Shown here piece by piece: positions 1 to 37,511 of a stretch of DNA of 64,000 nucleotides. Made by a program: the position numbers and the translations under genes. This stretch comes from a virus: positions 39,460 to 103,459 of IMG/VR virus record IMGVR_UViG_3300037247_000810. One strand, written 5' to 3'. The notes beneath the pieces were generated by a model. It made no database searches. It was not told where the DNA came from and saw only the letters and a list, made by a program, of their open reading frames with translations. How positions within the stretch are numbered: the stretch's first letter is position 1; each line of letters opens with the position of its first letter.

Positions 1-487
1 GGATTGTCTCCTCAGAGCAGCCGAACTTCGCGCAGAGGAACCGCACCATGCGGGCAATCCCGACCGTGGCCTGGCGCATCATCTGGAGCGTCGGCCCCAC
101 GATGCCGAACAGGTATTCGGTGCCGGGTGGGCCTTCGTCAACCTTCTTCTGAATCTCCCGCCAGAGCCAGTGGGGGCCAACGTGCGACTTGCCGCCCTGA
201 GACCCCGCCAAGAGGATTGTGTTTAGGGTCTCCCTATCATACCAGACAGGCTTCTGACCCCAGTGCGGGGTAAAAGTTGCGGCCATAGGGCCAACCTTCT
301 TGACATCGCCCAGTACACGGCGTGGGCGACGCACCTCGACGACGTTGCCCGTGACCTTGTACGCGGTCGTGGGCAGTCGAAGGTTGCCGTTGGCGGTGGA
401 GATGTAAGTGGTCATACCGATCAAGTTTCTTATCCTTGATCAATTGTAACCGCTGGCCTCCTAGCGGTCTAGGATTTGGGCCACTTC

Positions 488-721
488 TCATTCGGACGGG
501 GTGCGGGTGCCAAACAGCGCGCCGACCACGATGCCGAATGTGGTCGTGATCGATCCCAAGACGACGGGCAGCAAGTCCTTGATGACGCCGCCATCCTCCA
601 AGCCCAGGTACGTGAACAGCGCGTGTAGGCCCAGCAGCGAAGCCGCCAGGAACAGAACGCCGCCGAAGGCCCCGAATGCGATGGTGCGTGCCGTCAACGT
701 CAGTGGTTGTCCGTTAGCCAT
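488..721 (-). CDS. small 2-TM membrane protein (holin-like)
   Basis: ATG at 721 with GGGGAAG RBS; two hydrophobic segments. Confidence 0.6.
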   Translation of the reverse strand: MANGQPLTLTARTIAFGAFGGVLFLAASLLGLHALFTYLGLEDGGVIKDLLPVVLGSITTTFGIVVGALFGTRTPSE

Positions 722-923
722 TGTCTTCCCCCTTCTCAATAGTGATGCCGCCCTCCTGCTGGAGTACGATCACGTCGCCTTCCTGGAGGTGCAAGCTCAA
801 AGTACTCATGGGTGGCACCGTGTCGGGTGCCGCACTGAGACTCGCCGTTGTCACCTCGACTGGGCGATCCGTGATCGTGAACGGCACGGGTTGGATACGG
901 TCGTTCCTAATCGTGATCTTCAT
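714..923 (-). CDS. hypothetical protein
   Basis: MKITIRN start, tiles between neighbouring genes. Confidence 0.55.
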   Translation of the reverse strand: MKITIRNDRIQPVPFTITDRPVEVTTASLSAAPDTVPPMSTLSLHLQEGDVIVLQQEGGITIEKGEDNG

Positions 924-1542
924 CAGCCTCGAATACCTCCTCCCATTTGGGATCATCCCCATTTTCGCCAGCCGGGGCCTTCTCCTCGTCCTCCGACTGC
1001 TTTTCTGGTTCTACGGGCGGCTGCTTGGTGCTCCCGCGCCCAGCGCGGACGAGTCGGATACCTTCCGCCTCGGCGATGGCCCGGTTCCACCCGTCGATGG
1101 CATCCAGCAGTGACTTGTGATGGGCCGCGCCCACCTCATCCAGCGTAATCCAAGTCGCGTCAATGAGCCGATGAAGGCGCTGGATGTACTCGTCACGGGC
1201 CGCCTCCGAGCCTTTCTTCCCGCGCTCCTCCTTGACCTCCCTGATGATTACCCGAACAGTGTCGTGGACATTCCCCAGACCCTCAATGAGAATGCTGTAT
1301 GGCGACTCTGGGTCGGCGAGTGCCATAAAGATTTCCTCGCTCAGATAGCCCGCCACAACCATCTCTCCAATTGCTTGGCCGCGCAACTTATTGAGCCCGC
1401 CGCGCCCTTTGTTAGAGAAGACCACGGCGGCAGCGGCGCGCTGGGCATCACTCAACCCGTCCTTGGAATCCCATAGCCCCTTGAGACGGCGTAGCTGATT
1501 GAGCCGAGCATAGGCACTAATCGGTAGGTGTGGCTTAGTCAT
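907..1542 (-). CDS. hypothetical protein with acidic C-terminus
   Basis: 211-aa ORF, protein-like composition. Confidence 0.65.
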   Translation of the reverse strand: MTKPHLPISAYARLNQLRRLKGLWDSKDGLSDAQRAAAAVVFSNKGRGGLNKLRGQAIGEMVVAGYLSEEIFMALADPESPYSILIEGLGNVHDTVRVIIREVKEERGKKGSEAARDEYIQRLHRLIDATWITLDEVGAAHHKSLLDAIDGWNRAIAEAEGIRLVRAGRGSTKQPPVEPEKQSEDEEKAPAGENGDDPKWEEVFEADEDHD

Positions 1543-1573
1543 ACACTGATAGCCTACCACAGTCGCAGGCGAG

Positions 1574-1603
1574 TTGACAAGGGCGGGCCAGAACAGGTAC
1601 TAT
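1574..1603 (+). promoter_or_regulatory. sigma70 promoter, probably giving a leaderless mRNA
   Basis: TTGACA-N18-TACTAT; in-frame GTG 7 nt downstream at 1610. Confidence 0.65.
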
Positions 1604-1609
1604 GGCCCT

Positions 1610-2017
1610 GTGACTAGCTCATCTACAAAACGGGGGCATTCCGTCGAGGCGCGCCGTGCGGAGTTAGACCGAGCGCTCCGCAGGCCCCGTCGGGTTCTGT
1701 GGTCGTACTGTCCGCATCACGAAGGCGGATATTACTTCTTCGGCATCAGCATCCAATCATGGGGCGGCGGTGAGGAAGAACGCTGGAGTGCTGACCCGGA
1801 TATGCGGAAGATCAGGGGCACCTGTATGTGGTGCGGGAAGCGCACGATCTTCTTTGTCAATGCTGATGAACTAGAGAAACACCGATACACACCCATTGAA
1901 CTCTGCCTATGTGGGCTCCCGGACTATCACAAGGCCCCTTCCGTCACCTTCCTTCAAGAATACAACGCTATGGGCGTAGTTTGCCGACCCAATGGCCGTC
2001 AAGAAGCCAACGTTTGA
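1610..2017 (+). CDS. Cys/His-rich hypothetical protein (Zn-binding)
   Basis: CPHH, CMWC and CLC motifs; lies after promoter. Confidence 0.55.
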   Translation: MTSSSTKRGHSVEARRAELDRALRRPRRVLWSYCPHHEGGYYFFGISIQSWGGGEEERWSADPDMRKIRGTCMWCGKRTIFFVNADELEKHRYTPIELCLCGLPDYHKAPSVTFLQEYNAMGVVCRPNGRQEANV

Positions 2018-2657
2018 CGAACTCACGGAGGAGAGCCGCTACGCCGGGCCGCGCCGGACGCCAGTACTCGATCACGCAGCAGTCACTAAGGCCGTAATCG
2101 AATGGTTCCAGAACAAGAGCCAATGGCGGGCAGCCGAGACCGAGATGGCGCTGCCGACGAGCCCCCGTCGAAAGGCGACTCCGAAGTCTGCCCCATCTAC
2201 CATCGTGCGGCGGGCCGATGTCATCGCGTTCAATTCCGCCGACCACGAATTCTACATCATCGAAGTCAAGGCCCAGTGGAACGACTTCCACCAAGACCGC
2301 AAGTTCTTCGACTATCGCAAGTGGTGTAACTGGTTCGCCTTCGCCGTGCCGGAGGAGCTAGCCGTATGCGCCCGGCGACGGATGGATGACATCCCTGGCT
2401 GGTACGAGGGTGTGGGCCTGCTCGTGATCCCCAATGACTACAGTGATCGGCGAATGGTGCGACGGCCGAAGAAGTACGAAATGTCAGACGAGGACTACCG
2501 CTCGATGGCCGAGCGGTGGGGGCTGTCTTGTTGGGGACGGCTGATCGGGACGCGCACGAAGATCGCCGAGCTAGAGTGGCAGCTAAAGAATATCCGGTCA
2601 GATGTCCGCCAATTGCAGAAGAAGCTAGGCGACTCGAATCCTACCCTCTACCCGTAA
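1992..2657 (+). CDS. MmcB-like PD-(D/E)XK nuclease
   Basis: RADVIA...IIEVKAQWNDFHQDRKFFDYRKWCNWFAFAVP resembles the MmcB family motif. Confidence 0.7.
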   Translation: MAVKKPTFDELTEESRYAGPRRTPVLDHAAVTKAVIEWFQNKSQWRAAETEMALPTSPRRKATPKSAPSTIVRRADVIAFNSADHEFYIIEVKAQWNDFHQDRKFFDYRKWCNWFAFAVPEELAVCARRRMDDIPGWYEGVGLLVIPNDYSDRRMVRRPKKYEMSDEDYRSMAERWGLSCWGRLIGTRTKIAELEWQLKNIRSDVRQLQKKLGDSNPTLYP

Positions 2658-2662
2658 CGCCA

Positions 2663-2974
2663 ATGTATCCAATTCTGCCGGGGCCAAAGGATTACAGCCT
2701 AGAGGACGCGGAGTGCGAGAAGCCCTTCGCCATTTACGTTTGGGAATCGCCGCTCTGCCCGCGATGCGGGCAATGGCTTCGGCCCGTGGATATGCGGCCA
2801 GTTGGACAACCGTTCCAGGCAACCGCTGCCTGCCCGTCCTATCACGGACTACTCATTCACAACCAAACGGTCTGGGCTGATCTCCGTCCCCCGAAGGCCC
2901 AGAGGGGAGGCGACGGGGCCTGGTGTTCGAGTCTCACCGCCGAACAATTACGGGTGATGGCCGCGGAGTATTAA
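2663..2974 (+). CDS. Zn-ribbon hypothetical protein
   Basis: CPRCG and CPSYH motifs. Confidence 0.5.
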   Translation: MYPILPGPKDYSLEDAECEKPFAIYVWESPLCPRCGQWLRPVDMRPVGQPFQATAACPSYHGLLIHNQTVWADLRPPKAQRGGDGAWCSSLTAEQLRVMAAEY

Positions 2975-2979
2975 ATGCG

Positions 2980-3010
2980 AACACCGCGCCCCAATTAGAG
3001 GCGCGGTGCT
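2980..3010. terminator. GC-rich hairpin between convergent transcripts; likely end of the tRNA operon
   Basis: CACCGCGCC / GGCGCGGTG stem; U-tract weak. Confidence 0.65.
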
Positions 3011-3240
3011 GATATGTGACGGGTGACTTGGGGGCGGCCGGTGTGGGCAACTCAGACCCGCAAGTCTTCGATTCCTCTCAGACCTTGGCACTTGCTTCCG
3101 GTCTGGATTATTTCAACGCCGCCCGTCCGACGTTAGCCCACGGGATCACACACCTGACCCGTGGGGAAACGCAGTGGCCCGCGCGGGTGCTACCACTGTC
3201 CACGTCTTCGGGCAAGCCCTACTGGTGAACTTACGCAGGC
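3011..3240 (-). ncRNA. unassigned structured RNA (~220 nt) at the 3' end of the operon
   Basis: helices GCCCG/CGGGC, GACGT/ACGTC, CCCACGGG/CCCGTGGG, CAGACC/GGTCTG, GCAAGT/ACTTGC; no credible ORF. Confidence 0.5.
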
Positions 3241-3286
3241 CGGTGCCGGTGGAGGGAGTCGAACCCTCTTCTTACCCTTGACCGGC
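3241..3286 (-). ncRNA. anticodon-less mini-tRNA A (acceptor + T arm)
   Basis: GCCGGT..ACCGGC stem, GAGGG-TTCGACT-CCCTC T arm, short linker, ends ACCG. Confidence 0.7.
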
Positions 3287-3361
3287 TGGAGCCATCGGAG
3301 GGAATCGAACCCTCTCCTGCGGTTTACGAAACCGCTGCACAGCCACTTGTGCTTCGATGGC
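3287..3361 (-). tRNA. tRNA-Thr(CGT)
   Basis: cloverleaf, loop TTCGTAA, encoded CCA. Confidence 0.93.
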
Positions 3362-3447
3362 TGGTAGCCTCGGCGAGAGTCGAACTCGCACGCCGTTTCC
3401 GGCCGGGGCTTCTAAGACCCCTACGTCTACCATTCCGTCACGAGGCT
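3362..3447 (-). tRNA. tRNA-Leu(TAG)
   Basis: loop CTTAGAA, long variable arm; A1 shared with the terminal A of the upstream tRNA. Confidence 0.9.
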
Positions 3448-3522
3448 GGTACACCTGGTAGGAGTCGAACCTACAATCTCTCGGATGTGAACCGAGCGCC
3501 TTAGCCTTTGGGCCACAGGTGC
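3447..3522 (-). tRNA. tRNA-Val(CAC)
   Basis: loop TTCACAT, CCA. Confidence 0.88.
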
Positions 3523-3597
3523 TGGTGCTTCGGGACGGATTTGAACCGCCGACGCCGCGCTCTTCAGGCGCGCGCTCTACCCCTGAGCTACCGAAGC
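3523..3597 (-). tRNA. tRNA-Phe(GAA)
   Basis: loop CTGAAGA, CCA. Confidence 0.95.
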
Positions 3598-3598
3598 G

Positions 3599-3675
<77 letters not shown>

Positions 3676-3750
3676 TGGAGCGGAAGAAGGGACTCGAACC
3701 CTCGACATTCTCGTTGGCAACGAGACATTCTACCACTGAATTACTTCCGC
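3676..3750 (-). tRNA. tRNA-Gly(GCC)
   Basis: loop TTGCCAA, U73, CCA. Confidence 0.95.
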
Positions 3751-3837
3751 TGGTGTCACCGGCGAGAGTCGAACTCGCACCCCCTTGCGGGGACAAGGCT
3801 CTCAACCTTGCATGTCTACCTGTTCCATCACGGTGAC
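3751..3837 (-). tRNA. tRNA-Leu(GAG)
   Basis: loop TTGAGAG, long variable arm. Confidence 0.93.
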
Positions 3838-3913
3838 TGGTGAACTCGGTAGGAATCGAACCTACGACATCCGACGTATCAGATCGGCGCTCTAACCCCT
3901 GAGCTACGAGTCC
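3838..3913 (-). tRNA. tRNA-Ile(GAT)
   Basis: loop CTGATAC, CCA. Confidence 0.94.
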
Positions 3914-3989
3914 TGGTGACAGCGGGTGGACTTGAACCACCGGCCTTCGCCTTATGAGGGCGCTGCTCTACCAACTGAGCTACGCTGCC
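3914..3989 (-). tRNA. tRNA-Met(CAT), elongator-like (Ile2 not excluded)
   Basis: loop CTCATAA, G1-C72 paired. Confidence 0.88.
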
Positions 3990-4067
3990 TGGTAGCCCCA
4001 GCAGGATTCGAACCTGCGACGTTCCGCTTAAGAGGCGGCTGCTCTGGCCGGACTGAGCTATGGGGCC
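3990..4067 (-). tRNA. tRNA-Lys(CTT)
   Basis: loop CTCTTAA, CCA. Confidence 0.93.
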
Positions 4068-4153
4068 TGGTGCGCAAGGAGGGAATCGAACCCTCAAACC
4101 CTAGTGGGCACACGGTTCTGAGCCGTGCGTGTTTACCGTTTCACCACTCGCGC
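4068..4153 (-). tRNA. tRNA-Leu(CAG)
   Basis: loop CTCAGAA, long variable arm. Confidence 0.93.
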
Positions 4154-4241
4154 TGGTGGGGCAGGTAGGACTCGAACCTACGGAGACCGTTAAGGCCAGC
4201 AGGGTTACAGCCTGCCGCAATTGCCGCTATGCGACTACCCC
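4154..4241 (-). tRNA. tRNA-Tyr(GTA)
   Basis: loop CTGTAAC, long variable arm. Confidence 0.94.
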
Positions 4242-4243
4242 TT

Positions 4244-4317
4244 TGGAGACCCCGGCCGGATTCGAACCGACGATAACCGGGTTGCAGCCGGTTGCCTTAC
4301 CACTTGGCCACGGGGTC
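4244..4317 (-). tRNA. tRNA-Cys(GCA)
   Basis: loop CTGCAAC, U73. Confidence 0.94.
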
Positions 4318-4390
4318 TGGCACACCTGGTAGGAGTCGAACCTACTCTCACGGGTTTGGAGTCCGGTCGGCGCATCCCGCGCTCAGGTGC
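4318..4390 (-). tRNA. tRNA-Trp(CCA), atypical D arm
   Basis: loop CTCCAAA, G73; D arm GCGC-GGGAT-GCGC. Confidence 0.87.
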
Positions 4391-4465
4391 TGGCTGTCGG
4401 ACTAGGATTCGAACCTAGAACTTCCTGATTCAGAGTCAGGCGTCATACCGTTAGACCATCCGACA
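4391..4465 (-). tRNA. tRNA-Gln(CTG)
   Basis: loop CTCTGAA, U1-A72. Confidence 0.94.
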
Positions 4466-4539
4466 TGGATGCGGGAGCAGGAATCGAACCTGCATTCACG
4501 GGTTCAAAGTCCGACGTCCGACCTTTAGACGATCCCGCA
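4466..4539 (-). tRNA. tRNA-Gln(TTG)
   Basis: loop CTTTGAA, U1-A72. Confidence 0.92.
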
Positions 4540-4626
4540 TGGTGCGCCGGGAGGGAGTCGAACCCTCATGCCCCTGGAAGCACACGGGTTTGAGCCGTGC
4601 GTGTCTACCAATTTCACCACCGACGC
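4540..4626 (-). tRNA. tRNA-Leu(CAA)
   Basis: loop CTCAAAC, long variable arm. Confidence 0.93.
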
Positions 4627-4704
4627 TGGTGGGCCAGGTGGGAGTCGAACCCACAAGAGACACGGGGTTTAAGCCCGCCGCATATACCATTCTGCTACTG
4701 GCCT
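4627..4704 (-). tRNA. tRNA-Leu(TAA), short variable loop
   Basis: loop CTTAAAC; 7-nt variable region; A1:C72 mismatch. Confidence 0.85.
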
Positions 4705-4780
4705 TGGCACCAGAGGTAGGACTCGAACCTACAACCAACCGCTTAACAGGCGGCCGCGCTACCTATTGCGCCACTCTGGT
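4705..4780 (-). tRNA. tRNA-Asn(GTT)
   Basis: loop CTGTTAA, G73. Confidence 0.93.
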
Positions 4781-4849
4781 TGGAGCCAGGGGCGGGATTC
4801 GAACCCGCGTCTACAGACTTACAAGGCCCTAGACAACCTGTTACCTGGC
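4781..4849 (-). tRNA. tRNA-Thr(TGT), D-arm-less, 69 nt
   Basis: GCC..GGC acceptor, intact T arm and CCA, loop CTTGTAA, extended anticodon helix GTCTA/TAGAC. Confidence 0.7.
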
Positions 4850-4939
4850 TGGCGAAGCGAGCAGGATTCGAACCTGCGAGACCTTACGGCCCACCGCGTT
4901 AGCAGCGCGGCGCATTCAACCTGACTCTGCCACCGCTTC
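4850..4939 (-). tRNA. tRNA-Ser(GCT)
   Basis: loop CTGCTAA, long variable arm, G73. Confidence 0.93.
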
Positions 4940-4951
4940 TGGCACCGCTTC

Positions 4952-5027
4952 TGGCACCCTCGGCAGGAGTTGAACCCGCGACATCCTGGTTCGAAGCCAG
5001 GCACTCTGTCCACTGAGCTACGAGGGC
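4952..5027 (-). tRNA. tRNA-Arg(TCG)
   Basis: loop CTTCGAA, A20. Confidence 0.92.
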
Positions 5028-5105
5028 TGGTATCCGTGAGAGGGCTCGAACCTCCGGCCTCAGCCTTCGCAGGGCTGCGCTCTTATCCAACTGAGCTACA
5101 CGGAC
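5028..5105 (-). tRNA. tRNA-Arg(GCG)
   Basis: loop CTGCGAA, A20. Confidence 0.92.
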
Positions 5106-5192
5106 TGGCGGAAGGTGAGGGATTCGAACCCCCAAGGCCCATCACGCCCAACCGCTTTCAAGGCGGTGTACCACACCAATGGCAGACCTTCC
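5106..5192 (-). tRNA. tRNA-Ser(TGA) with selC-like D arm
   Basis: loop CTTGAAA, 7-bp acceptor GGAAGGT, 6-bp D stem with 4-nt loop. Confidence 0.85.
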
Positions 5193-5280
5193 TGGAGGAG
5201 ACGGTGGGATTCGAACCCACGAGACCTTGCAGCCCACTCGCTTTCGAGGCGAGCGCTTTCATCCACTCAGCCACATCTCC
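5193..5280 (-). tRNA. tRNA-Ser(CGA)
   Basis: loop CTCGAAA, long variable arm. Confidence 0.93.
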
Positions 5281-5368
5281 TGGCGGACGCTGTAGGATTC
5301 GAACCTACGGTGCCTTGCGACACACACGCTTTCCAGACGTGCCCGTTAAACCACTCCGGCAAGCATCC
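5281..5368 (-). tRNA. tRNA-Ser(GGA)
   Basis: loop CTGGAAA, long variable arm. Confidence 0.93.
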
Positions 5369-5453
5369 GTGTGCGGCGGCCTGCATCACAGTGTGCCTAC
5401 TAACATATAGGGTGGAGCCCAATGTTTCGGCACACGCCGCCGCCATCCACATT
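5369..5453 (-). ncRNA. unassigned ~85-nt hairpin RNA with loop-E-like motif
   Basis: GCGGCGGC/GCCGCCGC, GTGTGCC/GGCACAC, GAA/AGTA internal loop, AACAT/ATGTT. Confidence 0.55.
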
Positions 5454-5501
5454 CTGTGTCGGCTGCGGGAATCGAACCCACCTAACACCAGTTTAGCCGA
5501 C
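5454..5501 (-). ncRNA. anticodon-less mini-tRNA B
   Basis: 7-bp GTCGGCT/AGCCGAC, T arm GTGGG-TTCGATT-CCCGC, 13-nt linker containing TGG. Confidence 0.72.
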
Positions 5502-5578
5502 TGGCGACCCCTACGGGATTTGAACCCGTGACCTCCGCCTTGACAGGGCGGCGAGCACAACCACTGCTCCAAGGGGCC
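5502..5578 (-). tRNA. tRNA-Asp(GTC)
   Basis: loop CTGTCAA, G73. Confidence 0.95.
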
Positions 5579-5663
5579 TCGTTGCTAGCGCAGGTGCCCT
5601 TGGCCTTGGCTCCCCGACCGACCCGCTAGCTAGTCGACCGGATCAACGCTGTACCGAAGGGCT
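5579..5663 (-). ncRNA. unassigned ~85-nt structured, possibly pseudoknotted RNA
   Basis: GCCCTT/AAGGGC followed by ACC, GCTAGCG/CGCTAGC, CGTTG/CAACG. Confidence 0.45.
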
Positions 5664-5739
5664 TGGTGGCGGAGGCAGGATTCGAACCGACGTTCTCTTG
5701 CTTATGAGGCAAGCGAGATGACCACTTCTCCACTCCGCT
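5664..5739 (-). tRNA. tRNA-Met(CAT), initiator-like
   Basis: loop CTCATAA, 1:72 mismatch, A11-U24; lacks the 3 GC anticodon-stem pairs. Confidence 0.82.
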
Positions 5740-5814
5740 TGGCGGCCCATCAGGGAATCGAACCCTGCTCTGATGCTTGAGGGGCATCTATCCTATCCGA
5801 TAGACGAATGGGCC
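5740..5814 (-). tRNA. tRNA-Glu(CTC)
   Basis: loop CCCTCAA, 4-nt variable loop. Confidence 0.92.
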
Positions 5815-5890
5815 TGGTCGGGACGGCAGGATTCTAACCTGCGATTCCGTGCTCCCAAAGCACGTGTGTTGAACACTACACTACGCCCCG
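5815..5890 (-). tRNA. tRNA-Pro(TGG)
   Basis: loop TTTGGGA, C1-G72; T loop TTAGAAT. Confidence 0.9.
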
Positions 5891-5967
5891 TGGTCGGAGT
5901 TGCAAGACTCGAACTTGCGGCCCCCGCGTCCCGAACGCGGTGCTCTTCCTGGCTGAGCTAAACTCCG
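5891..5967 (-). tRNA. tRNA-Pro(CGG)
   Basis: loop TTCGGGA, C1-G72. Confidence 0.93.
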
Positions 5968-6043
5968 TGGGGTGATCGAGGAGATTTGAACTCCCGCTAA
6001 GAGGGCCACAACCTCTTGTGCTAACCACTACACTACGACCACC
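5968..6043 (-). tRNA. tRNA-His(GTG)
   Basis: loop TTGTGGC, encoded G-1:C73. Confidence 0.94.
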
Positions 6044-6044
6044 T

Positions 6045-6118
6045 TGGAGCGCCTAGCGGGAATCGAACCCGCGAACTCTGCTTGGAAGGCAGATATGTTG
6101 CCCCTACATCACAGGCGC
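6045..6118 (-). tRNA. tRNA-Gly(TCC)
   Basis: loop CTTCCAA, U73. Confidence 0.94.
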
Positions 6119-6193
6119 TGGTACGGGCGGTGGGACTCGAACCCACACCGAACGGTTTAAAAGACCGCTGCTCTGCCTTCGAGCTACACCCGC
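6119..6193 (-). tRNA. tRNA-Lys(TTT)
   Basis: loop CTTTTAA. Confidence 0.92.
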
Positions 6194-6269
6194 TGGTAGC
6201 GTCGACGGGATTCGAACCCGCTCCGTCCGGTTTGAAAGACCGGCGACCTATCCTGTAGTCGACGACGCT
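6194..6269 (-). tRNA. tRNA-Glu(TTC)
   Basis: loop CTTTCAA. Confidence 0.92.
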
Positions 6270-6345
6270 TGGAGCCTTCGGCGAGATTCGAACTCGCTGC
6301 CTCGTTCTTACCAAGAACGCGCTCTACCAATTGAGCTACGAAGGC
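6270..6345 (-). tRNA. tRNA-Thr(GGT)
   Basis: loop TTGGTAA. Confidence 0.94.
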
Positions 6346-6353
6346 TTGTTATC

Positions 6354-6683
6354 GAGCAATCGGGTCGTAAGCCGCTTTCTGTTTCTCTGCCTACATCTCT
6401 CTAGCTGTCACGCGGTCGCTGCCAAACTACCCGCCGCGCCTCCGGCCCCCTAACGCAATCCGTCTTTTCACACGACCTCCGTGTCTCCGGGTCTCGGCAG
6501 GCTCGGTGGCCCGCTACCCGTAGTCGCTGTTCGTGACATCTCGCCGGTCTCTTGCCCGACGGCCCGCCTTATTAGGGACGGGTAGGTTGTTTGGCGGCCG
6601 AGCGGACTTTCCTCAAGGGCCTCGTGGTGCAAACGCCTCGCGGCTCCCACCAGACGATCCTGCGTAGGCACGTCCGATTGCTC
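6354..6683 (-). ncRNA. rnpB: RNase P RNA (divergent, reduced)
   Basis: CR-I GAGGAAAGTCCGCT and CR-V ACAGAAAGCGGCTTA form P4 with a bulged U; P1 GAGCAATCGG/CCGATTGCTC; P2 TGCCTAC/GTAGGCA; CR-IV-like CTAGAGAGATG. Confidence 0.92.
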
Positions 6684-6686
6684 TCT

Positions 6687-6737
6687 TGGCAGCCGGTCGC
6701 GGAATCGAACCGCACGGAGGTCAACCAGACCCCGGCT
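6687..6737 (-). ncRNA. anticodon-less mini-tRNA C (acceptor + mini D arm + T arm + GCCA)
   Basis: AGCCGG/CCGGCT, GGTC-TGGTT-GACC, TGCGG-TTCGATT-CCGCG; directly 5' of the RNase P RNA. Confidence 0.72.
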
Positions 6738-6812
6738 TGGTGCCCTGAGCGGGAATCGAACCCGCATCTGCCGCTTAGGAGGCGGCTGCGCTATCCATTA
6801 CGCCATCAGGGT
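6738..6812 (-). tRNA. tRNA-Arg(CCT)
   Basis: loop CTCCTAA, A20. Confidence 0.92.
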
Positions 6813-6887
6813 TCAATAGGCATCCGTGCCGATGGCCTTCCTGGCCCCAATACCACGGCCCGCCTGAGTTAAGGCACACGGGCCGGA
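6813..6887 (-). ncRNA. unassigned ~75-nt structured RNA
   Basis: CGGCCCG/CGGGCCG, CCT/AGG, possible pseudoknot GTGCC/GGCAC. Confidence 0.4.
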
Positions 6888-6936
6888 CGGTCGACTGCGC
6901 GGGGATTTGACCCCATAGCGCCAAGCGCCGCAGCCG
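6888..6936 (-). ncRNA. anticodon-less mini-tRNA D
   Basis: CGGCTGCG/CGCAGTCG, GCG-CTTGG-CGC, GGGG-TCAAAT-CCCC, ends ACCG. Confidence 0.62.
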
Positions 6937-6937
6937 T

Positions 6938-7007
6938 TGGCACCCTCGGTGGGAGTCGAACCCACGTTTGGCCGCTTAGAAGGCGGCGCATCGTCCCCGA
7001 CGAGGGC
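6938..7007 (-). tRNA. tRNA-Arg(TCT), truncated D arm, 70 nt
   Basis: loop CTTCTAA; only 13 nt between acceptor and anticodon stems. Confidence 0.8.
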
Positions 7008-7083
7008 TGGTGAGCGATGAGGGAGTCGAACCCCCGGCACCCTGGATGTAAGCCAGGTGCTCTGGCCTCTGAGCTAATCGCCC
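7008..7083 (-). tRNA. tRNA-Val(TAC)
   Basis: loop CTTACAT. Confidence 0.94.
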
Positions 7084-7158
7084 TGGTGGAGATGACAGGA
7101 TTCGAACCTGCGACTTTCAGTCTGCCAGACTGACACTCTCCCGCTGAGTTACATCCCC
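7084..7158 (-). tRNA. tRNA-Ala(GGC)
   Basis: loop CTGGCAG, G3:U70. Confidence 0.95.
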
Positions 7159-7234
7159 TGGTGGAGCACGCGGGACTCGAACCCGCAACCTCCTGCGTGC
7201 AAGGCAGGCGCACTCCCAATTGTGCTAGCACCCC
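7159..7234 (-). tRNA. tRNA-Ala(TGC)
   Basis: loop CTTGCAC, G3:U70. Confidence 0.95.
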
Positions 7235-7310
7235 TGGTGGAGACGACAGGACTCGAACCTGCTACCTCGTCGTTGCGAACGACGCACTCTCCCTGCTGAG
7301 CTACGCCCCC
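7235..7310 (-). tRNA. tRNA-Ala(CGC)
   Basis: loop TTCGCAA, G3:U70; first tRNA of the operon. Confidence 0.95.
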
Positions 7311-7320
7311 TAGTCTATTC

Positions 7321-7353
7321 TAGCAAAGAACGGGCCGCCTCTATGGGCGGTCG
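7321..7353 (-). promoter_or_regulatory. rrn-type boxB hairpin plus boxA-like antitermination site
   Basis: CCGCC-CATAGA-GGCGG hairpin then GTTCTTTG, between promoter and first tRNA. Confidence 0.55.
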
Positions 7354-7359
7354 ATCCTC

Positions 7360-7388
7360 AATATACCGGATCGCGGAATACTTGTCAA
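7360..7388 (-). promoter_or_regulatory. near-consensus sigma70 promoter of the tRNA operon
   Basis: TTGACA-N17-TATATT with AT-rich upstream element. Confidence 0.85.
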
Positions 7389-7530
7389 GGGCAAAACGAA
7401 CTTTCTTCGAAAATATTTCAGGAGCCGTATCCGCATGTGACGGCGTAGAGACACCATGACCGACCATTCGGCTCGATCTGAAGACTCTGGCGGTGACATC
7501 GTGGACAGTACACAAGAAGTCCTAGCATCA

Positions 7531-7770
7531 TTACCTCCTCACCCGGCCCTCGGCGACGGCTACCGTAAGAATCTCGACTACCTGTTCCAAGTTGTCTAAC
7601 ACCCTCTGAAATGGGATACCGCGCCTAGTCAGATCGACGAGTTGGAACTTGAGCGGGCCAGGGCCATAGGCTTCCAGTAGCGCGCAGATGCGGGGCAACT
7701 CGGCCCCGAACTCGCGCTCGCTAATGCAACCGTCCCGGATGATCTCGAAGGCCCAGACCTCAAGGTTCAT
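7531..7770 (-). CDS. hypothetical protein
   Basis: ATGA overlap with upstream gene; GGAGG RBS. Confidence 0.65.
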   Translation of the reverse strand: MNLEVWAFEIIRDGCISEREFGAELPRICALLEAYGPGPLKFQLVDLTRRGIPFQRVLDNLEQVVEILTVAVAEGRVRR

Positions 7771-8360
7771 CGCTTGTTCCTCCCCCGCCGTCGAAGTCGT
7801 TTCGGCACCTCGCCCCGGGTCTGGTAATCCCTAATCTCCTGTGGCGTCATCTCCTCGATGTGCTCGTTCAGGAAGAAATTGTAGGACGGCAGCGGCGGCT
7901 CCTCGTCGGCCCCGTACAACGCGGGCCGGAGCACCATCTTGCCCTTGGCCATCACATCCTTACCAGACACGCCCTGCTCTCCCTCGAACTTGCCCTTCTC
8001 GTACCAGAGCACGAATGCTTGGTTCTCCTTGGCCTCTTCCAAGCAGGAGAAGTGACGGCCGCACCAATCGAAGCCGTCCTCCCGCACCTCGCTATGCTGG
8101 CCACCGTGGCCGGGATTGGAGCAGTGCGGCGGGACACATGGGTCAGCGGTCGTGTGCAAGTCGGCCGAGCCATACCAAGAGTAGACGCGGAAGCACGGCC
8201 GATACCAGACCCGCGCCTTCGTTGGATCATGGCGAGGCGGCTTCCGCCCGCCGAAGCGCCGCCAGAGATTGCGGAGGCCGGGGAAGGATGGCTGAAGGAG
8301 ACCCGCAACCGCACGCGGGATCGGCCCGCTGGTCTGCTGCTCCTCTTCTTCGTTAGCCAT
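7767..8360 (-). CDS. hypothetical protein
   Basis: GAGGAG RBS; tiles with neighbours. Confidence 0.65.
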   Translation of the reverse strand: MANEEEEQQTSGPIPRAVAGLLQPSFPGLRNLWRRFGGRKPPRHDPTKARVWYRPCFRVYSWYGSADLHTTADPCVPPHCSNPGHGGQHSEVREDGFDWCGRHFSCLEEAKENQAFVLWYEKGKFEGEQGVSGKDVMAKGKMVLRPALYGADEEPPLPSYNFFLNEHIEEMTPQEIRDYQTRGEVPKRLRRRGRNKR

Positions 8361-8712
8361 CGCACTCCTCACTGCCCGCGAGACATTCCTTGCAGGTCAC
8401 GGCCTCCCTGTAGTTGGCAATGCGGTAGCGCTCCCGTCGCTTGTGCGCGGCGTCGGGCGAGAAATCACAAACAATCTGCCCGGCGCGGCAGTAGTGGACA
8501 TCGGGCTTAGCCATTACGCTTGGCTTTCTCATAGAATTGAATGGCGCGGTGAAATCTAGTTGTCGCCCGGCGGTTCGGCGGGCAGATACCATAGCTGCAA
8601 GTCTTAATGGGTTCGGGGTGCCCCTGGCCCTCGTGCATAGACCACCGCATTGTCCCTAACAGAGCAGCCATAAAATCTGCACTTGACAACACTTCATCGA
8701 TCAGATCGTCCA

Positions 8713-9426
8713 TCATCGCCTTTTCCCCCTCTTTGCTTTGCCCTTCTTGCGTTTCTTCGGCTGAGGGCGCGCGGGCTGCGCCACCACTAACTGGCCGCGT
8801 TTGACGGGCTGGAACTTGTAGGTGCAGAAGTCCAGGCCGTCCACGTCCGTCGGATGCTGGGGATAGGACGCGCACATCTTCGGACGTTGCGCCGTACCGG
8901 AAACACCACACAGCCCATCTTTGGTCAATTGGGTACAGCGGACAGGCACGTAAGCCGCCAGTTGTTGGCCAAACCGCCGGAGCATCGTGATCCCGTGCTG
9001 CTCCAACCAGACCACCCAGGCATCGAAGTCCCATGTGGGCGGCTCGCTCTTCACCTCAACGGGAATAGCCGCCGTCAACAGGCCGCTCGGCAACTGATAC
9101 AGGTAGGCATCATGCTGCGCGAGCCAGTATTCCCAATCCTCGAATCCCGCTTTGCCGCGCGTGACGGGATCGATAGGTAAAATGATCTGCTCGTGGACGA
9201 CTAGGGCGAAGTCTTCATCCGCCAACCCTTCGACCTGAATCGGTACGACGAATGCGGTGCAACAGGCCCCGCAGCCCGCCGTGCAACCGCCCATCCGCAA
9301 ATAGCCAACAAGGTCTTCCAACTCCGCAACGAGGGGCTTGAACAGCTTGATCTCATCGGCCTGGAGCCGCGAGGGATTGAAATGGGCAGGCTTATCAATT
9401 GTCGGATAGCGATCAAGAACCGGCAT
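8713..9426 (-). CDS. YkgJ-family Cys-cluster (Fe-S/Zn) protein
   Basis: CTAGCGACC ... CTQLTKDGLC..RPKMCASYP. Confidence 0.75.
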   Translation of the reverse strand: MPVLDRYPTIDKPAHFNPSRLQADEIKLFKPLVAELEDLVGYLRMGGCTAGCGACCTAFVVPIQVEGLADEDFALVVHEQIILPIDPVTRGKAGFEDWEYWLAQHDAYLYQLPSGLLTAAIPVEVKSEPPTWDFDAWVVWLEQHGITMLRRFGQQLAAYVPVRCTQLTKDGLCGVSGTAQRPKMCASYPQHPTDVDGLDFCTYKFQPVKRGQLVVAQPARPQPKKRKKGKAKRGKRR

Positions 9427-9873
9427 CTACGCCGACCATTCTGGACAGTAACCGGGCTTGTGTTCCCCGACGCAGCCATCTGAGAATTGCTCCGTCGATA
9501 GGTCGCCGGGCAGCGGCATCGGATCGGACAACACGGCCACGTGCACCTCACCCAACTCATCCAGCACGCGATGGCCCGCCTCGTCTAAATGCATCTTTTC
9601 GACTTCGAATCCGGGCCGGATGGCGAGCTTGCCCTGGCGCAGCAATTCGACCAGATCAACATCGTCGAAGTACGCCTGCACGTACAGGTCGTGGTCGTCA
9701 ATCCACGCCTGGTCGATTTGCCCAACCGGCCGCCGGAAATTGAAGTCGCGTGTGATAATGGAGCCAGTCCACAGTGCATCGACCATATCCATCAGCGCCT
9801 CGGCGGTGACGATTTCACCTCGTACATCTACCTGTTCGCTCCGCCAGACCAGTGCATCGATATTCTCTCCCAT
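9427..9873 (-). CDS. XkdF/HK97-like prohead protease domain protein (tentative)
   Basis: VDVRGEIVTAEAL..DFNFRRPVG pattern; GGGAGG RBS. Confidence 0.45.
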   Translation of the reverse strand: MGENIDALVWRSEQVDVRGEIVTAEALMDMVDALWTGSIITRDFNFRRPVGQIDQAWIDDHDLYVQAYFDDVDLVELLRQGKLAIRPGFEVEKMHLDEAGHRVLDELGEVHVAVLSDPMPLPGDLSTEQFSDGCVGEHKPGYCPEWSA

Positions 9874-9900
9874 ATCTACCTCCCTAATGGGCGCAATTCC

Positions 9901-9929
9901 TTGCCAAGTTCTTGGCCGCATGGCATAAT
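9901..9929 (+). promoter_or_regulatory. sigma70 promoter
   Basis: TTGCCA-N17-CATAAT; ATG at 9939. Confidence 0.6.
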
Positions 9930-9938
9930 GAGAATGTC

Positions 9939-10301
9939 ATGGCCACCAAGAAGAACTCCACGAAGTCCGTGAACAGCGGCCGCGCCACCACCCGCGATGT
10001 GCTGTCGGCTGTCCTCGGCCTGAATGAGCGGATCGACGACACAAACGAGCGGGTCGACCGCACGCTCGAAGGCCAAGTACGCCTCTCGGAGCAAATGACC
10101 GGCCTTCATAACTCGATGCACGATCTCCGTGAAGCAACCAATGACCGCCTGCACGAGATGAAGGCGGATATTATCACGCTCAAGCGCCCGTGGCTGATCC
10201 TGGCCTCCGGTTGGTCGAAGGCCCTGGCCGTCGGTGGCTTCGCGGCCGCCCTTACCGGCACCATCGTCAAGCTGGAGTTGTGGCGCTACCTGCCGTTCTA
10301 G
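9939..10301 (+). CDS. coiled-coil protein with C-terminal TM segment
   Basis: heptad-rich N-terminus, hydrophobic C-terminus. Confidence 0.65.
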   Translation: MATKKNSTKSVNSGRATTRDVLSAVLGLNERIDDTNERVDRTLEGQVRLSEQMTGLHNSMHDLREATNDRLHEMKADIITLKRPWLILASGWSKALAVGGFAAALTGTIVKLELWRYLPF

Positions 10302-11036: not shown

Positions 11037-11290
11037 TGCGTAACCTGACCAGCGCACAGATTGCCCGGCGGAGCGCCCTGTTGGAGCGGCTAAGGGTGCA
11101 GGGGTGCCAGACCGCCGATATGCTCCGCAGCTACCTCGTGCACCGCAAACGCATCATCGTGACGGTTGACACGGTTCAACGAGACCTCCGGGCGATGGAG
11201 GCCGTGGGCACCTTGAGGCGACGTGGGCTCTCATCCGCCGGACGCGCATGGGGAAACGGGCGCAGCATCATCTGGAGCATGGCCGAATGA
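11036..11290 (+). CDS. winged-helix DNA-binding protein (ArgR/DeoR-like)
   Basis: VTVDTVQRDLRAM; TAATG coupling to upstream gene. Confidence 0.55.
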   Translation: MRNLTSAQIARRSALLERLRVQGCQTADMLRSYLVHRKRIIVTVDTVQRDLRAMEAVGTLRRRGLSSAGRAWGNGRSIIWSMAE

Positions 11291-11628
11291 GCGAACAACG
11301 TCACGAAGTCGCGCGCATCACAATTGCATTCGTCCGCGAGACGGCCCGCCTGCGGCACGACCGCGGCCTCGATTATATGCCGTGGTGCCGGGGCAAGAAG
11401 CATAAAGGTGTCGGCTGGCCGTGGTGGAACATCCGGTTCTCGTACAAGACCCTCTCGGTTAGGGCCGCCAACCAGTCCTTCTACTGGTGCGACGTGTGCC
11501 TGCCCGCCCGCTACCGAACGGTTGCGGACTCCATGATTAGGGGCAGCGAGAAGGCCCGCGTTCTCCAGGGCGAGGCGCTGGAGAACGTTGCGCGCCGAGC
11601 CGCGCCGCAAGGAGCCGATGGGCACTGA
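11287..11628 (+). CDS. hypothetical protein
   Basis: ATGA overlap; Cys motifs. Confidence 0.5.
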   Translation: MSEQRHEVARITIAFVRETARLRHDRGLDYMPWCRGKKHKGVGWPWWNIRFSYKTLSVRAANQSFYWCDVCLPARYRTVADSMIRGSEKARVLQGEALENVARRAAPQGADGH

Positions 11629-11809
11629 CCGCATCCCGTGGAAGCAATTACTGTTGTAGCTCATCCTTGATCTCTCGCCAGAGGTTCTTGAGCGTTTCCT
11701 TATCAACGTCACGATGGAGCCGCATCTCCGCCCAGGCGACAAGGATAAGAGCGGCGACCAGATCGGCCGTCGCTTCTTTATCCTTGTACGCTGGGTGAAT
11801 AGGCATCCG

Positions 11810-36460: not shown

Positions 36461-36914
36461 ACCTACGCGCTACGTCATTGAGTACACCGACCGGCGGCGG
36501 TGGGAGGAGCTACACCGCGCTCCTCACGCGGAGCCCGCCGAGTCGGTCGACTTCCGCGTGTTCGCGGATGTGAAGACGCTGATAGCTGCCCGCAAGGAGG
36601 CGGCACGGATGCTGGCCGAGTGGGAGTTCGCGCAGCCGGTGATCTATCGGCGTGATTGGATTACGCCGGTCGCGTGGGACTATGGCCTGGTATCGGTGGA
36701 CGACGATGAAGAGTAACCTAACACGGTTCTGTCCAAGGTGCGGTGGCACAATGGAGCCCAGGAGCGACCTGTACGGGGAGTATGATTGCTGTATCAACTG
36801 CGGCTACCACCTGGACGTGCTGCGAGGGCCGCCCATAGAGTTGAAGCCCCCGTACCGGGGCGGGCCGACGAAGGTGGGACGGAGGCGCGGGCCATCAAGG
36901 AGGGGCCAGAAGCT

Positions 36915-37511
36915 ATGACCTATAGCAACGAACTACTGTACTACGCCACTGAGGAGAGCAACCGCATTGAGCAGGAGCCGATCAAGGGCCGCTCGTTCGA
37001 CAATCATTGGCGGGCCACACTATTGGCCCGGACGGCGGCAGAAGAGTTTACACTATTGCATCCCCGCGTCCTGCATCAACTATTGTTCGAGGGATTACCA
37101 ATGCCGCTGCTCATGGCCAACGAGCAGGCGGGCGGCGACTACCGGCCGCCGGGCGTGACCGCCTACGTGCAGCACGAAGACGGTAGCAAGCACGTCTTCG
37201 CCGACCCTCGCCAAGTGGAAGCGCTTATGCGAGCGTGGTGGGCAGAGTGGTGGAAGGCGTGGGCCTACCATGATCCGAACATCCAGAGCGACCTCGTGCG
37301 CTGGTGGTTCCACGCCTGGTTCGAGGCCATCCACCCGTTCGCTGACGGCAACGGGCGTGTCGGTCGCCTGCTCTGGTGGAACATGACAATGCTTGCGGGC
37401 CAGAAGATTGAAGTCATTGGCTCCGGCGAGGAGCGATTCGCTTACTATGACCGGCTGGAAGCCTGGCAGCGCGATCACTGTAACACCGAGTACATGAACC
37501 CGTTTAAGTAA
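36915..37511 (+). CDS. Fic-family protein
   Basis: HPFADGNGRVGR; ESNRIE at the N-terminus. Confidence 0.9.
   Translation: MTYSNELLYYATEESNRIEQEPIKGRSFDNHWRATLLARTAAEEFTLLHPRVLHQLLFEGLPMPLLMANEQAGGDYRPPGVTAYVQHEDGSKHVFADPRQVEALMRAWWAEWWKAWAYHDPNIQSDLVRWWFHAWFEAIHPFADGNGRVGRLLWWNMTMLAGQKIEVIGSGEERFAYYDRLEAWQRDHCNTEYMNPFK

Follow-up and report, generated by a model that had tools for sequence, protein, structure and literature searches.

Background

Which RNA, if any, lies between the last tRNA-like element and the terminator of a long tRNA operon in an uncultured marine-sediment phage, and what would it do there? To our knowledge, extra small RNAs in phage tRNA clusters, known since T4, have never been explained. 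An earlier note on the present DNA had described positions 3011-3240 as a multibranch RNA of ~220 nt that ends the operon. A conserved, structured ncRNA was indeed found at this place; however, its conserved unit (hereafter, the core) has ~155 nt, not ~220 nt, and the first 68 nt are lineage-specific. We call the RNA of this unit the trailer RNA.

The end of the tRNA operon

The window (the whole stretch of DNA that was analysed, 64 kb) is the final part of a 103-kb IMG/VR virus record, which is ~82% complete. With ARAGORN, 40 tRNA genes were assigned at 3287-7310, all on the minus strand; they are arranged mostly head to tail without spacers, and CCA is encoded. Since all 40 tRNAs are on the minus strand, the flagged stretch 3011-3240 was to be read on this strand. 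The order on the minus strand is tRNA-Thr(CGT), mini-tRNA, flagged stretch, terminator hairpin, and the stop codon of a convergent plus-strand ORF. The elements that frame the core are listed below.

3287..3361, minus strand: tRNA-Thr(CGT), the last true tRNA (ARAGORN; Rfam tRNA, 57 bits)
3242..3286, minus strand: mini-tRNA of the acceptor/T-arm type, 45 nt (sequence reading)
3173..3240, minus strand: 5' domain, 68 nt (single-sequence fold)
2973..3008, minus strand: terminator hairpin, CACCGCGCC (3008..3000) with GGCGCGGUG (2990..2982), then UUCGCAUUU (sequence reading)

The encoded CCA of tRNA-Thr(CGT) abuts the mini-tRNA directly. The mini-tRNA is composed of an acceptor stem (GCCGGU/ACCGGC) and a T arm, with an 11-nt linker in place of the D and anticodon arms, and is followed by A-CC; in the relatives X2 and X3, base 3241 is A, so that its end reads ACCA. 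An equivalent mini-tRNA closes the array in every related locus. Its acceptor/T-arm shape suggests that the mini-tRNA is a substrate of RNase P: because the CCA of each tRNA abuts the next 5' end, a cut on the 5' side of the mini-tRNA would complete the CCA end of tRNA-Thr. The same direct-linkage logic underlies a synthetic tRNA array (PMC12381190). Note that in two related loci (L004:5800-5898 and L016:1838-1912, minus strand) the linker that joins the acceptor strand of the terminal mini-tRNA to its T arm contains structured inserts (45-75 nt); the mini-tRNA itself is thus able to host extra RNA.

The RNase P RNA of the phage was located at 6354-6683. It was also found in arrays that lack the trailer module (L006 and L019); a link between the RNase P RNA and the module was rejected, as their co-occurrence was not strict.

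The 5' domain is closed by a stem formed by GCCUGCGU (3240..3233) and GCGCGGGC (3184..3177), with two hairpins inside. No homologue of 3240..3173 was detected in the loci L004-L021 with blastn or nhmmer; the domain was found in contigs from two other studies with ~88-90% identity. Among the substitutions listed for these contigs, two tighten predicted pairs of the domain (U.G to C-G at 3237, and U.G to U-A at 3200). As judged from these comparisons, the 5' domain is confined to this phage and its near relatives, that is, an add-on specific to the lineage.

Behind the terminator, the stop codon of a convergent plus-strand ORF (2663-2974) touches the terminator tail. This ORF encodes ~103 Cys-rich amino acids with a CPRC motif; it had no Pfam match, and its sequence is clearly kept across all the related loci, including those without the module. 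The next plus-strand gene upstream, at 1992-2657, encodes an MmcB-like protein.

Relatives of the locus and distribution of the core

The MmcB-like neighbour has 44 relatives in a large protein set, and the protein alignment was used to scan metagenome contigs, by which 18 loci were obtained. Of the 13 loci scanned, 12 have a minus-strand tRNA array behind the MmcB-like gene, just as in the window, and nine of these have tRNA-Thr(CGT) as the last tRNA. In the loci carrying the core, the identity of the MmcB-like protein was 51-65%.

In the trailer alignment, the core (~155 nt; 3172..3019 of the window) recurs in L004, L008-L012, and L016. The covariance model R1 scored 115-167 bits in these loci, with a single copy per locus at the same place, and also detected copies of the core cut by the contig end in L013 and L014. 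The core was thus found in eight full and two truncated sequences. Five related arrays (L006, L007, L020, L018, and L019) do not have the core. The terminator follows the mini-tRNA directly in L006, L007, and L020, and a different RNA of ~65 nt occupies the slot behind the last mini-tRNA in L018 and L019. From this pattern of presence and absence, the mini-tRNA and the terminator can be regarded as a fixed frame, and the slot between them as a place for exchangeable cargo. As a side observation, the ~65-nt RNA (L018:1760-1840 and L019:10985-11100, minus strand) is closed by CCCACC/GGUGGG with CCACGGGCCUAC inside, and L019 keeps a remnant of the leader and HP1 (see below) of the module.

A distant blastn search with 2600-3400 against 50,697 phage records gave no match. 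In IMG/VR, where next to no kin were found, neither the mini-tRNA pattern nor the HP2 pattern had any match (0 each), and no relative of the MmcB-like protein was found with the protein or its alignment; the P5/P6 pattern had five matches, all without tRNA genes, of which one read (L025) resembles a coding sequence, and we took all five as chance. A DNA polymerase search yielded one 57-kb relative, in which the trailer and the first tRNAs had no match, although this record is ~50% complete and the result shows little. The search of genome contigs gave only a remote MmcB-like match in a Rhodospirillaceae MAG. With the model R2, two matches of 21-25 bits were obtained in 151 sampled Pseudomonadota genomes; both lack HP1, one also lacks P5/P6, and both were taken as chance, so that the core RNA was not found in this sample, which says little.

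Structure of the core

The elements of the core, as read from the alignment of the relatives, are given below.

3166..3172, minus strand: pyrimidine-rich single-stranded leader (alignment A2)
3137..3165, minus strand: HP1, 9-11 bp with a bulged U and a 6-nt loop, GGUGUG (3154..3149); five pairs changed on both sides
3114..3135, minus strand: HP2, AACGUCG/CGGCGUU, with ACGGG (3126..3122) in the loop (alignment)
3076..3107, minus strand: HP3, outer stem CCAGACC/GGUCUG, internal loop, and conserved apex AGCAAGUGC (folds and alignment)
3032..3059, minus strand: P5/P6 hairpin, GGGU (3059..3056) with GCCC (3035..3032), GCC (3048..3046) with GGC (3039..3037), and loop CACACC (3045..3040)
3040..3045, minus strand: 3' strand of PK1, CACACC, a 6-bp loop-loop kiss with the HP1 loop GGUGUG (3154..3149)
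3019..3023, minus strand: 3' strand of PK2, CCCGU, with ACGGG of the HP2 loop (3126..3122)

The energy of the single-sequence fold was no better than chance: for 3240..3011, z was -1.4, and 21 of 200 shuffled sequences folded as well; with the mini-tRNA included, z was -1.6 (10/200 shuffles as good), and the plus-strand fold gave z = -1.2. That the core is more than chance was therefore judged from the compensatory changes across the compared sequences, not from fold energy. HP1 and HP2 were recovered by RNAalifold, whereas PK1 and PK2 were first spotted by eye in the aligned relatives and then counted formally.

The leader reads UUCUUCC or UUCUCCC in the relatives and GUUUC(CCC) in the window, and no consistent pairing partner was found for it. 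A closing helix between the leader and the purine-rich sequence after HP3 was rejected (-0.6 to -11.8 kcal/mol, no common register). An invariant GGCUA is located just before HP2; the six core pairs of HP2 were formed in 100% of the cells, with changes on one side only. For HP3, single folds agreed in five of the eight sequences, and in the model-fitted alignment four of the six pairs of the outer stem change on both sides, with 81% of the cells paired. The first pair of P5 covaries (U-A, G-C, and A-U); as an independent check, positions 3059 and 3032 change together from G-C to A-U in DNA contigs of three other runs.

PK1 was found in the combinations GGUGUG/CACACC (the window and L004), GGUGAG/CUCACC or CUCAUC, GAUGAG/CUCAUC, and GGUGCG/AGCACC; 97.9% of the cells were paired, and two pairs changed on both sides. 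For PK2, the combinations were ACGGG/CCCGU, GUGGG/CCCAC, and GCGGG/CCCGC or CCCGU, with 100% of the cells paired and two pairs changed on both sides. When the whole fold was counted on the MAFFT alignment, 97.2% of the cells paired, and 10 pairs were changed on both sides. None of 500 shuffled controls reached any of the four measures, and the slid controls paired in only 33-56%. After refitting with the outer stem of HP3 included, the values were 94.6% and 14 pairs, although an alignment fitted to the model, as here, is biased in its favour. Some double changes may be single events, since only eight full sequences in about two clades were compared. On the comparison of these relatives, the core is a compact fold of three hairpins and the P5/P6 hairpin, locked by two pseudoknots.

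These results also bear on the pairings proposed in the earlier note. The nested helices and the long hairpin described there were reproduced: the fold of 3240..3011 consists of a three-way junction on the 5' side, a long hairpin, and a multibranch part on the 3' side. The two alternative partners reported for CAGACC are present, as CCAGACC (3106..3100) can meet GGUCUG at 3084..3079 and at 3058..3053; however, a switch pairing is not conserved, the second site reading GGUUUG or GGUAUG in relatives, with its GGU belonging to P5. Likewise, the second ACCGGC exists, at 3042..3037 (one base off the 3038-3043 given there), but the suggested re-pairing with the mini-tRNA is not conserved: this ACCGGC is the end of PK1 plus the P6 strand, and its equivalents ACCUGC, AUCGGC, and AUCAGC do not track the mini-tRNA stems of the relatives. 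Seen against the relatives, both alternative pairings are coincidences of this one sequence. The possible pseudoknot at CAGACC did not stand either, the real tertiary pairings being two others, PK1 and PK2. The covariation that was to be sought in collected homologues was obtained: eight full and two partial sequences were collected, both partners had changed in 10-14 pairs, and none of 500 shuffles did as well.

Strand, coding potential, and termination

All indels in the core are of 1-2 nt, and each reading frame is interrupted in at least one homologue. The ORF at 3016-3228 on the plus strand, which had no Pfam match and whose frame was not kept, and the tag-like frame ANVGRAALK, which is broken by 1-nt indels in homologues, were therefore removed. 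The invariant U.G pairs of HP2 and P5 would become A.C mismatches on the plus strand. Diverged homologues, compensatory base changes, and the lack of a conserved reading frame were thus all found, as is general for conserved structured ncRNAs. From this pattern, the core is read as non-coding and transcribed from the minus strand.

The terminator of the window is GC-rich with a 9-bp stem, and its weaker tail, UUCGCAUUU, fails the T-run rule of the scanner. On the minus strand, the scanner did call its homologue in L009, which has 11 pairs and the T-rich tail TTGTATTT, and T-rich tails after the terminator hairpin are conserved on the minus strand only. Through this call in L009, the GC-rich hairpin and the U-run on the transcribed strand that characterize an intrinsic terminator were both found. 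No promoter-like site was found in 2600-3500. From the position, the lack of a promoter-like site, and the minus-strand terminator, we infer that the trailer RNA is co-transcribed with the tRNA operon.

Comparison with known RNA families

With Rfam 15 at the gathering threshold, only tRNAs were detected in the whole window. At E values up to 10, the matches in 2500-3450 and 2995-3245 were at chance level, none in the stretch exceeding 17 bits as a rounded score. The best alignment was that of Betaproteobacteria-1 (RF02932), which spanned the whole model at 3168..3056 and scored 17.2 bits, the gathering score being 49.4. The model of this family covers HP1 to HP3, with the shared strings GGUC-GGU and GAAGC-AG-GCC; in the alignment with the trailer RNA, the middle helix of Betaproteobacteria-1 is not formed. 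This family was rejected, because the score is far below gathering and the match is absent in L009, L011, and L016. The Rfam scan proposed in the earlier note thus gave no significant match (17 bits against 49 at best), and none that was reproduced in the homologues.

The earlier note had also failed to recognize tmRNA, SRP RNA, or 6S RNA in the stretch, and we agree. A tmRNA has a tRNA-Ala-like domain with G3:U70 and a free CCA end, a helix P2 that joins this domain to the body, and a tag frame with resume and stop codons. In the closed minihelix of the mini-tRNA, the GCCGGU/ACCGGC stem has C3-G70 instead of G3:U70, and tmRNA was rejected; none was found by ARAGORN in 1-10000 or in Rfam at E up to 10. 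The candidate tag frame GCU AAC GUC ... UAA was also rejected, as it lies inside HP2 and is shifted by 1-nt indels in L010, L016, and L004. SRP RNA, 6S RNA, and RNase P RNA had no family match at E up to 10 in 2500-3450 or 2995-3245 and were rejected, as was a mimic of 16S h18-h20, since the module profile found nothing in the E. coli rrn operon with nhmmer. The HDV-like (theta) fold is a nested double pseudoknot in which the 5' strand of P1 pairs behind P3, P2 closes the structure, and cleavage occurs at the 5' end; this candidate was rejected because the covarying helices of the core are local hairpins with loop-loop and loop-tail pairings. The trailer RNA matches no RNA family catalogued in Rfam 15.

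Possible function of the trailer RNA

We propose that the candidate ncRNA would be transcribed as the final unit of the minus-strand tRNA operon of the phage, this strong operon serving its expression. RNase P would cut 5' of the mini-tRNA, by which the CCA end of tRNA-Thr would be completed, and the trailer RNA would then survive, with or without the mini-tRNA attached, up to the intrinsic terminator. It would act in trans as an optional 'cargo' by binding a protein or RNA of the host or of the phage; the compact fold leaves free the pyrimidine leader and the invariant apex of HP3, which are likely contact surfaces. We give roughly even chances to the reading, made from the sequences, that the trailer is an accessory RNA that closes the operon and acts in trans. 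The module is patchily distributed, has invariant loops, and is swapped for other RNAs in sister phages, all of which suits an accessory trans-acting RNA better than a core processing element. More tentatively, and with somewhat less than even confidence, the core may be the founder of a new class of compact, double-pseudoknotted phage RNAs with a trans function (a sponge or decoy for a host protein of RNA processing, translation, or defence, or a new ribozyme), delivered by a tRNA-operon system with its own RNase P RNA and mini-tRNA cutting marks. Pfam scans of ~130 phage ORFs gave no RNA-binding partner candidate for the trailer RNA and no Ro, RtcB, SmpB, RnpA, or CCA-enzyme domains, and no sites complementary to the leader, the HP3 apex, or the junctions were found within the operon.

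A role in cis was considered, in which the module would cap the 3' end of the polycistronic tRNA precursor, either as protection against 3'-to-5' exonucleases or for better termination or RNase P processing, with no function afterwards. Wherever the module occurs, it stands at the end of the array with the terminator directly behind it, and no copy lies at any other place, as would suit such a cap; on the other hand, five related arrays do without it, the terminator hairpin is already a GC-rich 3' block of 9-11 bp, and the invariant GGCUA and AGCAAGUGC together with two pseudoknots exceed the needs of a simple block, so that we regard this explanation as unlikely. We consider it quite improbable that the core would be a ribozyme, whether one that separates itself from the mini-tRNA by self-cleavage, as theta (HDV-like) ribozymes do behind phage tRNAs, or another catalytic RNA. 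The size and double-pseudoknot complexity are within the range of the glmS type, ribozymes beside phage tRNAs are known (PMC10879173), and the synthetic tRNA array has a terminal HDV ribozyme (PMC12381190). Nevertheless, no Rfam ribozyme family matched even at E up to 10, the covariation-backed topology differs from the nested P1/P2 fold of HDV-like ribozymes, the junction with the mini-tRNA is variable, with an insert of 68 nt in the window, and a cut on the 5' side of the mini-tRNA would already provide the 3' end of the last tRNA.

The aptamer-like size and the tertiary pairings, the location of the 3' strand of PK2 10-20 nt before the terminator, and the convergent genes that begin right behind it would suit a riboswitch-like sensor, whose fold would decide between termination and antisense read-through into these genes (the ORF ending at 2974 and the MmcB-like gene). 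However, no conserved alternative pairing between the core and the terminator was seen in the alignment, and the column-pair scan listed none beyond column 161, although alignment A2 ends at the first bases of the terminator stem. Moreover, the terminator is strong and conserved in sequence, and no riboswitch family of Rfam matched; a sensor is thus highly improbable. Finally, we give next to no weight to an origin from a known RNA (tmRNA body, SRP RNA, 6S RNA, 16S fragment, or Betaproteobacteria-1), of which the core would be a degenerate remnant or a distant member. Such an origin could be read into the full-length alignment of RF02932 at 3168..3056 (17.2 bits) and into brief resemblances, noted by eye only, to SRP helix 8 and 16S positions 500-590; against it, RF02932 remains far below its gathering score and is absent in L009, L011, and L016, ARAGORN found no tmRNA, the ANVGRAALK frame is broken, G3:U70 is lacking, and nothing was found in the E. 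coli rrn operon.

Relation to other RNAs near tRNAs

The accessory trans-acting RNA proposed here has its closest precedent in kind in T4 RNA C and RNA D (species 1 and 2 stable RNAs), small ncRNAs of the T4 tRNA region whose role is still unknown (PMC3014915), both being, like the trailer RNA, small ncRNAs from a phage tRNA gene region. There is, however, no sequence similarity to them (distant blastn, 50,697 phage records), and the trailer RNA differs in its two covarying pseudoknots, in the preceding mini-tRNA, and in that the phages carry RNase P RNA. Theta ribozymes are nested double pseudoknots of ~60 nt that cleave at their own 5' end. These minimal HDV-like ribozymes are pseudoknotted, are located directly 3' of phage tRNAs, and have been linked to tRNA end formation (PMC10879173). 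The trailer RNA is likewise structured, pseudoknotted, and located behind phage tRNAs, but its ~155 nt form local hairpins that are joined by loop-loop and loop-tail pairings, and a cut at the mini-tRNA would produce the end of the upstream tRNA.

As in MALAT1/mascRNA and in mitochondrial tRNA punctuation, a tRNA-like element sets the border between a substrate of tRNA processing and an adjacent RNA that is not a tRNA. The element of MALAT1 is 3' of a long RNA, whose 3' end it defines, whereas the mini-tRNA lies on the 5' side of the ncRNA and probably serves mainly to complete the tRNA in front of it. The mini-tRNA matched the mascRNA family weakly, with 15-19 bits (18.6 in L009) against a gathering score of 42.5, and falls outside this family. 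GOLLD and ROOL are Rfam families of 500-800 nt. They are large structured RNAs of unknown function, often found in phages or prophages near tRNA genes (PMC12286853); neither matches here in Rfam, and the trailer RNA has ~155 nt. Theta ribozymes and GOLLD/ROOL are both examples of structured RNAs located beside tRNAs by phages. The trailer fold is unrelated to T4 RNA C/RNA D, theta ribozymes, and GOLLD/ROOL, and is not in Rfam 15.

The trailer RNA is a clean, comparatively supported example of a phage tRNA-operon RNA with a defined tertiary fold, and the phages of this lineage encode an RNase P RNA and mini-tRNA processing marks as well. As a target of ~155 nt with two testable pseudoknots, it is useful for structure probing, cleavage assays, and pull-downs. 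The end slot of the operon swaps its cargo (the trailer module, a different 65-nt RNA, or nothing), and should the RNA prove to target translation, RNA processing, or defence in the host, phages would have in it a takeover tool of a new kind.

Other features of the window and of the related arrays

Two unnamed tRNA-sized gaps of the array, at 4318-4390 and 4781-4849 (minus strand), are conserved in five to seven related arrays (nhmmer, E = 1e-9 to 3e-3) and are probably unusual tRNAs rather than spacers. The non-tRNA inserts at 5369-5454, 5579-5663, and 6813-6887 (minus strand) had no detectable homologue in the related loci fetched, in which they differ from the RNase P RNA and the trailer module, both of which have homologues there. 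Outside the array, a Fic/DOC-family protein is encoded at 36786-37511 on the plus strand (Pfam, E = 1e-11), and for most of the ORFs located at 7.5-36 kb, Pfam gave no match at all.

In L006, ARAGORN called a 'tmRNA' of 514 nt with a 23-residue tag (11182-11695, minus strand), which overlaps tRNA-Ala(TGC); two halves of tRNA-Ala may have produced this call as an artefact, or the tRNA may be interrupted. The order of the tRNA genes is shuffled in blocks among L004, L006, L008, L010, L012, and L019 as compared with the window; in L004, L006, and L020, for example, Cys takes the place of Thr as the last tRNA. Throughout the related arrays, the arrangement without spacers and the terminal mini-tRNA are retained.
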